Origin: Methanobacteriota archaeon
GTDB taxonomy: Archaea; Halobacteriota; Bog-38; Methanoflorentales; Methanoflorentaceae
DNA: 64,000 bases
Direction of reading: 5' to 3'
Assembly: GCA_963720465.1 (NCBI GenBank)
Contig: OY970393.1
Location: forward strand, 736,001 to 800,000
The position numbers were made by a program, and so were the translations under genes. Numbering within the stretch: the stretch's first letter is position 1; each line of letters begins with the position of its first letter. The notes below the pieces were generated by a model. That model saw nothing but the letters and a program-made list of their open reading frames with translations. It was not told the DNA's origin and ran no database searches. Shown here piece after piece: positions 28,998-39,939 of this stretch.

Positions 28998-29318
28998 GTG
29001 AAGATAGGCATCATCATCTATTCAAATGACGCGGAAACAGTGTGGAACGCCTTCCGATTCGGCAATTACGCCGTGAAAGAGGGGGATAGCGTAGCAACGT
29101 TCCTCATTGCCAAGGGCGTGGAGAGCGAAACCCTTGATACCGACACATTCAAGATCACGGAACAGATGCGCTCCTTAATTGAGGGCGGCGGCACGATATC
29201 TGCCTGCGAGACGTGTCTCGCCATCCACCACTTGGGGGGCTCTGAATTGTGTCCGATATCAACGCTTACAGATTTGCACGCTATAGTGAAGGAGAGCGAC
29301 AAGATCATTACTTTCTAA
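28998..29318 (+). CDS. DsrE/DsrF-family protein
   Basis: WNAFRF, FL..KGVE, ACETCL, SDKIITF; ggaggtga SD. Confidence 0.9.
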   Translation: MKIGIIIYSNDAETVWNAFRFGNYAVKEGDSVATFLIAKGVESETLDTDTFKITEQMRSLIEGGGTISACETCLAIHHLGGSELCPISTLTDLHAIVKESDKIITF

Positions 29319-29517
29319 GCGCGGCTGGGACGTGATTGACCCTTAGGTAATCGGGTCAGTTTTCGGGTTTTTTGAGCTGCGATGGCCACTCGGCAGCGCC
29401 TTTTATACAGAAGTAACCTCCCTTGAGGTCGTAATCAACATACACCTGACATCCGGGGCCGTTGCATCCCTGCATCGCAGCCGTCTTTTGACTCTTGCCC
29501 GTGGTGCAAAACACCAC

Positions 29518-29731
29518 GTGAGATTCCGACGACATTAGAAAATGTGATGAGGTGTCTCTGCTGTAAGACCTGCCCGACGTTCAAGCACACCCTCTGTGGG
29601 GGGCGTATTGCGCGACGGGCAAAAACGAAACGACACCCGAAAAGAGGGAATGCGACTGCCGGAACTGCCTCATCTACCTACAGTACGCGCTCACTGGGGA
29701 CTACTTTTGTATTTACGGCGCGTCAGAATAG
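29518..29731 (+). pseudogene. DUF2769-like Cys-rich protein, frameshifted
   Basis: EN...CLC..CPTF / YCATGK / CDCRNC..Y..Y.L...YFC..G; paralog of 39685-39939. Confidence 0.8.
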
Positions 29732-29832: not shown

Positions 29833-29949
29833 ATGGACGCAAAAGATGAGAAGAAGGAAGAGTACTACAAGGGCAAGGAAGTAAAGGGCAAGCTCGAGAA
29901 AAAGAAGGAAGAGTACTACAAGGGCAAGGAAGTCAAAGGCGAAAAATAG
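29833..29949 (+). CDS. 38-aa charged peptide with an internal tandem repeat
   Basis: MDAKDEKKEEYYKGKEVKGKLEKKKEEYYKGKEVKGEK*; tttttata TATA upstream. Confidence 0.55.
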   Translation: MDAKDEKKEEYYKGKEVKGKLEKKKEEYYKGKEVKGEK

Positions 29950-29970: not shown

Positions 29971-30342
29971 GTGACTAACGACGACAAACCCGGCTGGTAC
30001 TCGGTCAGTGTCGAGTACAAGCCCATTCCGTCAGAGCTGCGTCCAGGTCGCGGTGAGTGGTACTTCCAAGCTACGCTCATACACGAGTATCGCGATCCAT
30101 CGGGCGGGATACAGACCGAAAAAACGCCGCTCGGCAGCATTGATGTCGACCACATTGATTCGGTCGAACTGCGGCAGGCATTCTACGCGGCAACTGAAGA
30201 CGCGCTTGACGCGCTACAGTTACCGCACGAAACGCGCGAGCAGATCGCTGCCGAACTTAGGCTCGTGGTTCGGCCGCCTACTGAAGATACCGGGAAGCGG
30301 CCGCGAATAGGATTAGGTGCGCTGCTACCTGACGAGAAATAA
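29971..30342 (+). CDS. Hypothetical protein
   Basis: ORF with plausible composition. Confidence 0.6.
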   Translation: MTNDDKPGWYSVSVEYKPIPSELRPGRGEWYFQATLIHEYRDPSGGIQTEKTPLGSIDVDHIDSVELRQAFYAATEDALDALQLPHETREQIAAELRLVVRPPTEDTGKRPRIGLGALLPDEK

Positions 30343-30577
30343 AGGCGTTGCCTTCTCACGGGCCGTCTGGGCTAAAATAAAAAGGCCCGAGCCGAAGCTT
30401 GCGCCATTAGAACGCAGATCATTTCGCGGGCTTTGTGCAGTCAGCTGACGTTTGCCCCGCGTGCACTGTACAGGCATTGTAGGCCTCCCAGCTAGTAGAG
30501 CACTTCCACAAAAAGTTTTTCGGTGCCCACGTAGCCAGAGCGCGAGTAAAGTATTAAGACTTTCAGCTGAATTAATA

Positions 30578-30717
30578 GTAGCTACGCTGTCTGCGGCACT
30601 TTGGCAGCGAGAGAAGCTTATCGCGCCTCCCGTATTTTAGGGCGTTGCTTTAACCGGTTGCTAGCAGCCCTGAGCGATCTTCGATTGCTCCTAGCTGCGG
30701 GGGGAGAGAGGGACATA
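30578..30717 (+). ncRNA. Candidate structured 5' leader of the DUF2111 gene, copy 1
   Basis: Stems covary with the copy at 39091-39232. Confidence 0.55.
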
Positions 30718-31116
30718 ATGGAACAATATGAGTTTTCATCAGACTCTACGAGCAGCGATTTAATCCCAATCGCATTGGCAGTTCACGCCGTATTAGGCGG
30801 CCTGCCCGTTACGATGCGAAGCCAGAACCATCGCGGCGTTCAAATTGAAGACGGCAAAGTGAAAAGTCGGAACTATACGGGCCCTATACTCGAACGAGTT
30901 CTTGCCGAGAACACATTGATAAAGACGCGGCCGCAAGCGGGGGAATACACGAACGTACCGGTCATAGTTGCCCCCATTCAGGACAGTAGAGGTTCGGCAA
31001 TGGCTGCCATTGGCGTTGTCGATGTCACTGGAATATTCGACCTGGCGGATGCTATGAGCCAGCAATCGCAGATCATCAACCAACTGCGTTATTGCGCCGT
31101 GCCTGCGAGCAAGTAA
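30718..31116 (+). CDS. DUF2111-family protein, copy 1
   Basis: LPVTMRS...GV.IE.G.V....YTGPILE.V, VPV.VAPI, AAIGVVD. Confidence 0.85.
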   Translation: MEQYEFSSDSTSSDLIPIALAVHAVLGGLPVTMRSQNHRGVQIEDGKVKSRNYTGPILERVLAENTLIKTRPQAGEYTNVPVIVAPIQDSRGSAMAAIGVVDVTGIFDLADAMSQQSQIINQLRYCAVPASK

Positions 31117-31198: not shown

Positions 31199-31903
31199 TT
31201 ACTCCTCAAGGGGCGTAACGAAGCAGGATGCCAGCTTGCTGTTAATGAGCTTCTGTTCGTGGAAAAGGCGCGCTGTGAGGTGGTACATGCCTTCTTCACT
31301 CGCGTAAAGCTCGCTTGCGAATCGCTTCGTGCCGCCTTTTGCGATGAAGTCGACATCGATCACGTCCATGAGCGTGTGGGCTTTCGACGGGGGAGTTGCG
31401 GCGATTTCGAGCCGTAGCTTTGACACGTCGCGGTGGGCGTACACGACCGTTTCCGTCTCGATTGTTTCTTCGTATGCCCAGTAGGGCCGATTCACGAAGA
31501 AGGTCTGGATCTCGGCGGGATCTTCAATGATTCGAACCTCATGATGGGGAGAGTACCAGCTCACGAAAGCACCGTAGCGGTACGCCGTGACGTGCAGATA
31601 GACCCATCCAGTGTGGTTGGCAAAAACGTGAAAGTTGAGCGTTGCCGTGTCTTGAGGGCGCAACTCTTTCACGTAATGAAACGAGCCGCTTGGCAAAATG
31701 TCGATATCGTGCGAGTTAGTGGTATACAGCGTCGCGCTTACGTCGACGAGGGAGTCCGTTGACACGTTCTTCAGCTGGACGGTGATCCAGTGGCGCCCCC
31801 GTTCGAGCACCTTGGGCGTAACGATTGCCTCGAAGGCATACTTGCGTTGTTCTTCTCGTTCTTTCGCGGCGATTCTCTTCTCTTTTTTCTTTTCGTCGGC
31901 CAT
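31199..31903 (-). CDS. Hypothetical beta-sandwich-like protein
   Basis: 234-aa ORF. Confidence 0.7.
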   Translation of the reverse strand: MADEKKKEKRIAAKEREEQRKYAFEAIVTPKVLERGRHWITVQLKNVSTDSLVDVSATLYTTNSHDIDILPSGSFHYVKELRPQDTATLNFHVFANHTGWVYLHVTAYRYGAFVSWYSPHHEVRIIEDPAEIQTFFVNRPYWAYEETIETETVVYAHRDVSKLRLEIAATPPSKAHTLMDVIDVDFIAKGGTKRFASELYASEEGMYHLTARLFHEQKLINSKLASCFVTPLEE

Positions 31904-38376: not shown

Positions 38377-38418
38377 AAGTAAGCAGGGGTTTGTTAATCC
38401 TGTTGTGAGTTGCACTTG

Positions 38419-38477
38419 GCACGCTATAATGAAGGAGAGCGACAAGACCATTACTTTCTAAGCGGGCTGGAATGTGA
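38419..38477 (+). repeat. Sliver copy of the dsrE 3' end and flank (29276-29335)
   Basis: gcacgctata-tgaaggagagcgacaaga-cattactttctaagcg. Confidence 0.9.
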
Positions 38478-38625: not shown

Positions 38626-39072
38626 ATGACGCTGCCGATACGTATCGAAAAGGATGAAATTCCGTTTTTTATTGCGGGATGCGCCGTTGAAGCAATACAA
38701 TGGGAAGTTGAAGGAATGCGGTACGAGGAGTGGCATGCCGAACGTGAACGAGGGGACGACCCGTCTGCCACGTGGCGCGATGAGATTGTGGTACCGTACC
38801 TCCAGCGCCGGTTTGAAGCGCTGGAAGTTCACAAAGATGGCCGTCTCTTCGGCATCCGACGCGAAACGCAAGAGCTGATCGATGAAGGTTTTTTGCGATC
38901 CAGAACTGCTCGAGGAATGTTTGCTCGCCAAATGTCCGGGACAAGGATGGCGGTTTGCATTAGGATGCTGTCGCAAACAACACTCGAAGTAACGCTCCTC
39001 CATAAAGGGCGGGCCTTGAGGCAGCCCCTAGTCTATTCGCGCGCAGCTGGCAAACTGCGAGTAAAGCCTTAA
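38626..39072 (+). CDS. Hypothetical protein
   Basis: ORF. Confidence 0.5.
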   Translation: MTLPIRIEKDEIPFFIAGCAVEAIQWEVEGMRYEEWHAERERGDDPSATWRDEIVVPYLQRRFEALEVHKDGRLFGIRRETQELIDEGFLRSRTARGMFARQMSGTRMAVCIRMLSQTTLEVTLLHKGRALRQPLVYSRAAGKLRVKP

Positions 39073-39090
39073 ATCTTTATAACTGAATTA

Positions 39091-39232
39091 GTAGCCGTTA
39101 CGTTGTCCGCTGTGCTTTGACACCGCGAGAGGCTTATCCGCGCCTGCGAGTGTTGGCGCCTTTAACCGATCGATTACGATCTTGGTCGGGTTCTTTTGCT
39201 GTCCTTGCTGCGGGGGAAGGGAGAACAACATA
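39091..39232 (+). ncRNA. Candidate structured 5' leader of the DUF2111 gene, copy 2
   Basis: Covarying stems; last stem covers the purine-rich SD region. Confidence 0.55.
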
Positions 39233-39631
39233 ATGGAACAATATGAGTTTTCATCAGACTCTACGAGCAGCGATTTAATCCCAATCGCATTGGCAGTTCA
39301 CGCCGTATTAGGCGGCCTGCCCGTTACGATGCGAAGCCAGAACCATCGCGGCGTTCAAATTGAAGACGGCAAAGTGAAAAGTCGGAACTATACGGGCCCT
39401 ATACTCGAACGAGTTCTTGCCGAGAACACATTGATAAAGACGCGGCCGCAAGCGGGGGAATACACGAACGTACCGGTCATAGTTGCCCCCATTCAGGACA
39501 GTAGAGGTTCGGCAATGGCTGCCATTGGCGTTGTCGATGTCACTGGAATATTCGACCTGGCGGATGCTATGAGCCAGCAATCGCAGATCATCAACCAACT
39601 GCGTTATTGCGCCGTGCCTGCGAGCAAGTAA
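39233..39631 (+). CDS. DUF2111-family protein, copy 2 (identical to copy 1)
   Basis: 399/399 nt identical. Confidence 0.85.
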   Translation: MEQYEFSSDSTSSDLIPIALAVHAVLGGLPVTMRSQNHRGVQIEDGKVKSRNYTGPILERVLAENTLIKTRPQAGEYTNVPVIVAPIQDSRGSAMAAIGVVDVTGIFDLADAMSQQSQIINQLRYCAVPASK

Positions 39632-39684: not shown

Positions 39685-39939
39685 CTACTCGGCGGCGCCG
39701 TGAATACAATAGTAGCCTCTAGTCAGTCCGTATTGTGTGTAGACGGGGCACTTGCGGCAGCCGCATCCCAGCATTTCAGGAGGCTTTTTACTCTTACCGG
39801 TTGCGCAATGAATCCACCCGCTGCAGCGGGTAAGCTGGAACGTCGGGCAAGTCGTGCAGCAGAGACATCTGACCACGTTTTCTGATGTAATCGGAACCGT
39901 CACGAAAACCCCTTCACCAGGTAGCCTAGGCTCGTACAA
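39685..39939 (-). CDS. DUF2769-like Cys-rich protein
   Basis: CLC..CPTF...HCATGKS...GCGC.KCPVY..Y.L...YYC..G. Confidence 0.8.
   Translation of the reverse strand: MYEPRLPGEGVFVTVPITSENVVRCLCCTTCPTFQLTRCSGWIHCATGKSKKPPEMLGCGCRKCPVYTQYGLTRGYYCIHGAAE

Follow-up and report, generated by a model that had tools for sequence, protein, structure and literature searches.

The stretches of ~175 nt that precede two identical DUF2111 genes in a methanogen genome are, on balance, best explained as an archaeal promoter and a downstream 5' untranslated region (UTR) of ~135 nt, long but not unusual for methanogen mRNAs, and not as a ligand-sensing aptamer. An earlier note, made from the DNA letters alone, had proposed a structured leader of ~140 nt that would act as a cis-regulatory RNA. 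The long leader between promoter and start codon is indeed very likely, one of its hairpins (H1) recurs among relatives and another (H3) carries two compensatory base pairs, whereas a dedicated regulatory RNA is disfavored by the covariation analysis, folding stability, structure conservation index (SCI), evolutionary rate, losses of the leader and the lack of an Rfam match.

Two identical genes under dissimilar upstream stretches

The window, that is, the whole 64-kb stretch of DNA that was analyzed, belongs to a genome that is represented by a single contig (G000; 2.31 Mb, 51.7% G+C), contains mcrA and comes from a class with 24 species genomes in only two genera. Both upstream stretches lie where they had been placed before (30542-30717 and 39057-39232), each ending just before the ATG of a DUF2111 gene (Table 1). 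The two loci are identical over 404 nt (30713-31116 and 39228-39631), with the identity ending only a few bases from the start codon at one end and the stop codon at the other, and the ~175 nt upstream of the genes are only ~67–69% alike. Leaders resembling that of copy 1 are designated A and those resembling copies 2 and 3 are designated B. Among 14 genes, coding sequences diverge to the same extent between genes that share a leader type (12.1% and 10.8%) and between genes of different types (11.8%). Identical coding parts under two old leader types suggest that gene conversion has acted repeatedly on the coding part alone, or that leaders have been swapped.

Table 1. Features of the two DUF2111 loci (positions in the window; functions of promoter elements are putative)
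Feature	Position	Strand	Description
Promoter, copy 1	30545..30560	+	BRE-like AGTAAAGT 30545-30552; TATA-like 8-mer 30553-30560
TATA-to-start block, copy 1	30563..30584	+	GAATTA and imperfect AGCTG/TAGCT inverted repeat
H1, copy 1	30585..30609	+	7 bp (30585-30591 with 30603-30609); 11-nt loop ending in TTG (30601-30603)
H2, copy 1	30623..30645	+	GC-rich, 5 bp (30623-30627 with 30641-30645)
TTTAACC, copy 1	30649-30655	+	directly 5' of H3
H3, copy 1	30656..30669	+	5 bp (30656-30660 with 30665-30669); 4-nt loop
H4, copy 1	30672..30690	+	8 bp, 3-nt loop; predicted from the minimum free energy (MFE) fold; A family only
SD pairing, copy 1	30688..30711	+	CU-rich 30688-30692 can pair with G-rich 30702-30706; GAGG 30708-30711, 6 nt before ATG
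DUF2111 gene, copy 1	30718..31116	+	132 aa; ATG 30718; Pfam PF09884, E 5e-33
Promoter, copy 2	39060..39075	+	BRE-like 39060-39067; TATA-like 8-mer 39068-39075
H1, copy 2	39101..39125	+	39101-39107 with 39119-39125; one U.C mismatch, 6/7 pairs; loop TTG 39117-39119
H2, copy 2	39140..39159	+	5 bp (39140-39144 with 39155-39159); 10-nt loop
TTTAACC, copy 2	39161-39167	+	directly 5' of H3
H3, copy 2	39166..39190	+	local 39168-39172 with 39177-39181; mutually exclusive longer pairing 39166-39171 with 39185-39190
SD pairing, copy 2	39202..39223	+	CU-rich 39202-39206 can pair with AAGGG 39217-39221; SD GGAG 39220-39223
DUF2111 gene, copy 2	39233..39631	+	132 aa; ATG 39233; identical to copy 1

A third copy of the gene, located outside the window on the minus strand (G000:C1:670036-670421, in locus L006, 670036-670584), is interrupted by stops and has its own version of the upstream stretch, with a B-type leader. 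The counterpart of this copy in another species (G009:C34, L047) is likewise broken, and the leaders of the pair are still 95% alike; the break may be recent, or the promoter with its leader may be useful by itself. Two repeats flank both DUF2111 loci in the window, a 49-nt direct repeat (29273-29321 and 38416-38464; 94%) and an 86-nt inverted repeat (29524-29609 and 39811-39896; 78%), and these may be remnants of a larger duplication. A 39-nt unit at 29851-29940 is repeated 51 nt apart.

The AlphaFold2 model of the DUF2111 protein is of low confidence (mean pLDDT 63, core 70–86), and the Foldseek matches to it are weak (TM 0.4–0.49) and involve GAF, PAS and Cache-like sensor domains. Comparison of the protein sequence with the PDB gave no match (best E 0.16), and no paper was found in a literature search for 'DUF2111'. 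As a lead taken from the model, the protein might bind a small molecule. Autoregulation by an RNA-binding DUF2111 protein was also considered and is unsupported, the low-confidence model resembling small-molecule sensor domains and not RNA-binding folds.

Promoter and predicted transcription start

Both upstream stretches start with AGTAAAG(T/C), which is followed by an A/T-rich 8-mer. This is the arrangement of an archaeal BRE/TATA pair, in which a purine-rich BRE lies directly 5' of an A/T-rich 8-mer, ~25–30 nt before the start. The motif is kept in the A and B families of leaders as well as in the shorter S family (see below), and several tRNA promoters of this genome share its layout, with AAAGC followed by an 8-mer such as ATTTATAT or TTAAGAGT. 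The BRE/TATA blocks of these tRNA genes are located 29–36 nt before the mature tRNA 5' ends, and in a methanogen with mapped starts, the reported distance from the TATA box to the transcription start is 19–22 nt (PMC5378194). From these two spacings, transcription is predicted to start at ~30580-30584 in copy 1 and at ~39095-39100 in copy 2. The first ~40 nt of the upstream stretches (30545-30584; 39060-39100) are accordingly best read as promoter DNA, not RNA, and the RNA leader would therefore comprise ~135 nt rather than the full 176.

The best conserved part of the upstream stretch is the block between the TATA-like 8-mer and the predicted start, with pairwise identity of 0.86 and 0.79 per 10-nt window, compared with 0.76 at four-fold sites of the corresponding 14 genes. 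This block, which contains the imperfect inverted repeat, is probably a promoter-proximal element or an operator; an operator for a repressor is possible.

Folding, covariation and rate of change

Structure beyond chance is not borne out by the folding energies. The predicted leaders fold with -47.9 kcal/mol (copy 1) and -46.0 kcal/mol (copy 2), which corresponds to z-scores of +0.23 and -0.65, with 116 and 46 of the 200 dinucleotide shuffles, respectively, folding at least as well. The single-sequence MFE folds differ between the copies, the RNAalifold consensus retains only H1, part of H2, and H3, and the SCI amounts to 0.40 with 6 sequences, 0.26 with 19 and 0.28 with the 12 B leaders, which are 83% alike.

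Covariation was assessed in unfitted alignments and in an alignment fitted to a covariance model. In the unfitted alignment of the 12 distinct B leaders, none of the 28 pairs shows a double change, 89.4% of the positions are paired (shuffles, 89.5%), and the covariation score of 0.067 compares with 0.068. Covariation within this clade thus equals that of shuffles. When 19 A and B leaders are aligned without fitting, the register is kept only in H3 and in the inner five pairs of H1; for these, 93.7% of the cells pair, compared with 89.9% in shuffles (reached in 0 of 500), and two pairs carry double changes, a number that 462 of the 500 shuffles attain. Insignificant covariation in a larger alignment had been named beforehand as the outcome that would speak against the proposal, and this is largely what the two unfitted alignments give. 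Both double-change pairs are in H3, where they compensate both substitutions of the 5' arm, and both split A from B, so that they represent one event on the tree. In the model-fitted alignment (26 distinct rows), double changes occur at 15 pairs, against which 1 of 500 shuffles holds up, and 87.9% of the cells pair vs 80.0% in shuffles, but this alignment is biased to structure, re-registering the GC-rich H2 and including partly matching rows, and its signal is mostly the single A/B split.

In orthologous pairs, the leaders diverge by 6–30% and the four-fold sites by 9–33%; with the leader changing about as fast as four-fold sites, there is no visible purifying selection on the leader as a whole. 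Downstream of H1, the pairwise identity per 10-nt window is 0.38–0.74, compared with the above 0.76 at four-fold sites. A search of the whole window with Rfam 15 at gathering score yielded no matches, and in the E-value mode around both copies, the only hits have E-values of 0.68–2.4, far below gathering scores. None of the hallmarks of riboswitches, namely a family match, helices backed by covariation and a core conserved over a wide taxon range, was found, and a riboswitch is unlikely.

Hairpin H1

The leader is predicted to open with hairpin H1, which across the families consists of 6–9 uninterrupted pairs closing a loop of 9–11 nt and starts 8–11 nt past a GAATTA-like box. H1 is the best hairpin at this place in 5/7 A, 8/12 B, 3/8 S and 6/9 T leaders. 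In random windows of the genome, a hairpin of at least 7 bp occurs at the H1 offset with p = 0.04, and one of at least 6 bp with p = 0.095. The stem sequences differ among A/B, S and T, that of T being unrelated; A/B and S share a 4-bp core, the helix being in effect slid by two pairs. The loop is partly conserved across the families. H1, H2, H3 and the pairing of the CU-rich stretch with the Shine-Dalgarno (SD) region, all listed in the earlier note, were found in the sequence, except that in copy 2, H1 forms only six of the seven pairs; in the B-family relatives of copy 2, one extra base in the 3' arm allows full pairing with a bulge. The stem contains one G.U pair in A, B and S, and three in T; on the opposite strand, these become C.A mismatches, so the hairpin makes sense only in RNA of the sense strand.

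This recurrence suggests that selection may act on H1 as a 5'-terminal RNA hairpin. Within the families, a hand tally gives ~7 stem changes that keep pairing, all of them one-sided, vs ~7–8 that break it, and a C.A mismatch in mid-stem in 5/8 S leaders; with conservative and disruptive changes about equally frequent, selection even on H1 is not proven. In the kink-turn consensus, a 3-nt bulge precedes tandem sheared G.A pairs to which both strands contribute. A kink-turn (the L7Ae-binding motif) beside H1 was considered by eye and discarded: the 3' side reads (A/C)GAGA, GA is missing on the 5' side, where H1 is preceded by a single A, and the flanking pairs do not fit.

Stems downstream of H1 and the Shine-Dalgarno region

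H2 is kept mostly by sequence. As read from the alignment, one of its G-C pairs is replaced by A-U in L066 and two pairs are mismatched in another leader (L116), and in the B family, 93.8% of its cells are paired, with no double change. The TTTAACC that precedes H3, taken for invariant when only the two copies were compared, varies in the larger set. H3 itself is perfect in 12 of the 19 distinct leaders. Between the two copies, three of its five pairs have changed, as had been noticed, two of them on both sides and one on one side. Copy 2 can form H3 in two mutually exclusive ways; among the 12 B sequences, pairing reaches 90.0% in the local form and 86.1% in the longer one, and neither covaries above shuffles. 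H4, which appears in the MFE fold of copy 1, is unsupported: it has no counterpart in the B family, and in L066, 3/6 core pairs are broken, as read from the alignment.

The final stem that had been drawn over the SD region can form in both copies, where a CU-rich stretch can pair with the G-rich SD. The 3' end of the 16S rRNA, at the rRNA spacer before tRNA-Ala, reads ...GGATCACCTCCT. In the B family, this helix (helix 5) is 84.7% paired, with no double change. The register of the pairing differs between A and B, and the pairing is absent in S and T, which have a small hairpin upstream of a free SD region. The outer stem (AGCT/AGCT) was rejected: only 73.8–78.8% of it is paired, and its reported change between the copies is a register shift in copy 2 rather than a change in place, with the 5' arm lying at or before the predicted transcript start.

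Distribution of the leaders among relatives

The DUF2111 protein is encoded in 25 of 41 related genomes (the source genome included) and in 13 of the 17 other genomes of its own genus. A BLAST search of the source genome with the leader DNA found only the query itself; the diverged copies surfaced by protein search, covariance model or nhmmer. The matches of two covariance models built on the leader are confined to one genus (g1), with 8/17 other genomes for model R1 and 6/17 for R2, and none of the 6 genomes of the other genus (g2) has a match to either. A scan of metagenome contigs revealed 474 relatives, and 80 loci of these were fetched.

Altogether, 75 upstream regions, 61 of them distinct, were examined and sorted by eye. 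Full leaders of type B account for 12 distinct regions and those of type A for 6, to which one A leader cut by a contig end, one A fragment before another gene (L041) and two regions that retain no more than the final ~65 nt of the A type (L064-type, L077) can be added. The shorter S type is represented by 10 distinct regions, the T type by 13 and the U type by two; one region is very divergent (L068), eight have other upstream sequences and two come from the AT-rich sister genus, where a TATA-like run lies ~30 nt before the ATG. The remaining three regions (L072, L096/L097 and L100) have no leader, the gene abutting the upstream gene; L010 is a fourth such case. In all these leaderless loci, ~280 nt, including the promoter and the leader, are missing, from a run that matches 30410-30421 to the SD region, and DUF2111 directly follows a homologue of the 123-aa ORF 29971-30342. 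DUF2111 and the 123-aa protein may work together.

The portable promoter–H1–H2 module

Part of the upstream stretch also occurs in front of a different gene. A 145-nt piece that extends from ~60 nt before the TATA-like 8-mer to the inside of H2 is 89–92% identical upstream of a small Cys-rich, zinc-ribbon-like gene (G000:C1:1543878-1544200; L052, L133). The module there is of the B type and includes the promoter, H1 and half of H2; the same arrangement with the zinc-ribbon gene is found in four other species. The gene itself matches the Pfam double zinc ribbon with E 0.01, below the cut-off. An nhmmer search with the module detects only 4 sites in the genome, the three DUF2111 loci and the one zinc-ribbon gene, and with this restriction the idea of a regulon was dropped.

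In another genome (G013), the zinc-ribbon gene has a different upstream sequence, follows another ORF and has its own ATG. The junction of the two upstream versions falls within the H2 loop, where they have a short run in common, and the switch between them looks like recombination at microhomology. A fragment that, from its translation read by eye, is a candidate tyrosine recombinase remnant adjoins the zinc-ribbon gene. Elsewhere, a promoter-less A leader (G003:C169:6772-6938; L041) precedes what appears to be a truncated methyltransferase gene (the C-terminal part), and this leader is probably a recombination scar.

Expression

Four metatranscriptomes, available as assembled contigs only, include relatives at 90–99% likeness; such contigs reveal neither the ends of transcripts nor their strand. 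A B-type leader and its gene are spanned in one piece by one contig in each of two runs; in one of these runs, the contig extends 1.6 kb upstream and hence shows no start. The bin with the copy 1 leader (30517-30833) is without contig cover, which in assembled contigs is uninformative. In each of the four metatranscriptomes, a neighboring gene on the minus strand (31199-31903; 234 aa), which has a weak CARDB match below the cut-off (E 0.0059), far exceeds all others in contig depth, with values of up to ~17,000. The contigs reach ~90 nt past the ATG of this gene, to about 31995, which hints at another long leader.

Interpretation

Under the reading favored here, the BRE/TATA elements, together with the conserved block that follows, would direct initiation at ~30580-30584 (39095-39100 in copy 2). 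The resulting leader of ~135 nt would open directly with the 7-bp H1, the sole element kept across several leader families, which, by analogy, might act as a 5'-terminal stem-loop that affects the lifetime of the mRNA or the access of ribosomes. H2, H3 and the CU-rich stretch appear weakly constrained and may tune translation, and the leader as a whole would drift near-neutrally and be dispensable in some lineages. Methanogen 5' UTRs are reported to be mostly 20–150 nt long, with 24% longer than 150 nt, and long ones are reported to add to transcript stability in the cold (PMC5378194). Long leaders being the rule in the two methanogens for which mapped starts are described (PMC5378194), the length of the present leader is by itself unremarkable.

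It is doubtful, by comparison, that the leader is a dedicated cis-regulatory RNA that binds a protein, for instance at the H1 loop, or masks the SD by temperature or a ligand, and in this manner controls translation of DUF2111. The mutually exclusive pairings of the B-family H3 and the CU-rich stretches that can pair with the SD in A and B would suit such a device, but the register of masking in A is not that of B, and masking is absent in S and T. The two compensatory pairs in H3 and the excess of the model-fitted alignment over shuffles speak for such an RNA, yet covariation is absent within the B family, there is no excess stability, the SCI is low and the rate of evolution is near neutral. 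H1 is kept in several families, with its loop partly conserved; against this, the leader has been lost or truncated in several orthologues, is confined to one genus and has no Rfam match, and the likeness of the low-confidence DUF2111 model is to sensor domains for small molecules rather than to RNA-binding folds. Several of these observations fit the opposite extreme, a neutral spacer in which nothing beyond the promoter and the SD is selected and the hairpins persist thanks to the kinship of the copies and the ease with which GC-rich stems form: shuffles fold as well as the real sequence, the leader changes at the rate of four-fold sites, the B family shows no covariation, disruptive changes in H1 are as common as conservative ones in the hand tally, and a hairpin of at least 6 bp at the H1 offset is fairly easy to obtain from random windows (p = 0.095). 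Nevertheless, we consider this account improbable because H1 occurs at the same place with different stems in A/B, S and T, an unlikely coincidence even given the 4-bp core shared by A/B and S, and because both substitutions in the 5' arm of H3 are compensated.

A somewhat remoter prospect is a fast-evolving regulatory leader specific to this genus, in which H1, with its conserved loop, and switchable H3/SD pairings would be bound by a protein or sense a physical signal, with the A and B types deliberately kept separate and gene conversion maintaining identical coding parts; one protein would then be under two different post-transcriptional programs. Hardly credible at all is an upstream reading frame or an N-terminal extension that would begin at the TTG in the H1 loop (30601; 39117), which was rejected. 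In copy 1, an open frame leads from this TTG to the ATG, and in the zinc-ribbon gene, it is the sole in-frame ATG, GTG or TTG from the promoter-like block to the first Cys pair (a further GTG lies upstream of the promoter-like block). In copy 2, by contrast, the frame is closed by a TAA, which overlaps with the ATG. Of the 18 distinct leaders of full length, 16 have the TTG (in L060, outside the H1 loop) and two lack it at the H1 loop; only 8 of these 16 are in frame with the ATG, 7 of them also open, and the reading frames of the S family vary from 8 to 34 codons. Since the TTG frames shift among relatives, there is no conserved peptide, and the coding alternative is largely refuted.

If the reading as a promoter with an ordinary long 5' UTR holds, its significance is modest: it provides a worked anatomy of a promoter and 5' UTR in a poorly studied class of methanogens, and H1 becomes a concrete hairpin for work on the protection of archaeal mRNA 5' ends. 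The comparison also illustrates that stems common to two paralogues are weak evidence for a structured RNA. For the annotation of these genomes, it is useful to know of the concerted evolution of coding parts under two old leader types and of a promoter-leader cassette recombined onto another gene.

Comparison with known systems

The A and B leaders share with translational riboswitches and RNA thermometers a CU-rich stretch, 10–14 nt upstream, that can pair with the SD. They differ from these in having no conserved aptamer core, no Rfam match and no excess folding energy, in a pairing register that is not conserved between families and in the limitation of the element to one genus. A closer parallel is offered by the 5'-terminal stem-loops that stabilize bacterial mRNAs, such as ompA of Escherichia coli, and aprE and hbs of Bacillus subtilis: there, as predicted here, a hairpin lies within a few nucleotides of the 5' end and is followed by a long leader and an SD.

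The first ~40 nt of the present stretches match the layout of archaeal promoters, for which a BRE, a TATA box and a promoter-proximal element are named in Thermococcus (PMC5316973); compared with such promoters, the stretch from TATA to start is conserved to an unusual degree here and contains an imperfect inverted repeat. The nearest counterparts of the whole arrangement are the long, in part structured 5' UTRs described for mRNAs of Methanosarcinales (Methanosarcina mazei and Methanolobus psychrophilus), in which BRE/TATA elements are likewise followed by a leader of ~100–150 nt with predicted stem-loops, some of which mask the ribosome-binding site. These organisms belong to another archaeal class, and the start in the present case is predicted from the sequence, whereas the leader described here can be traced through paralogues and ~60 distinct relatives.
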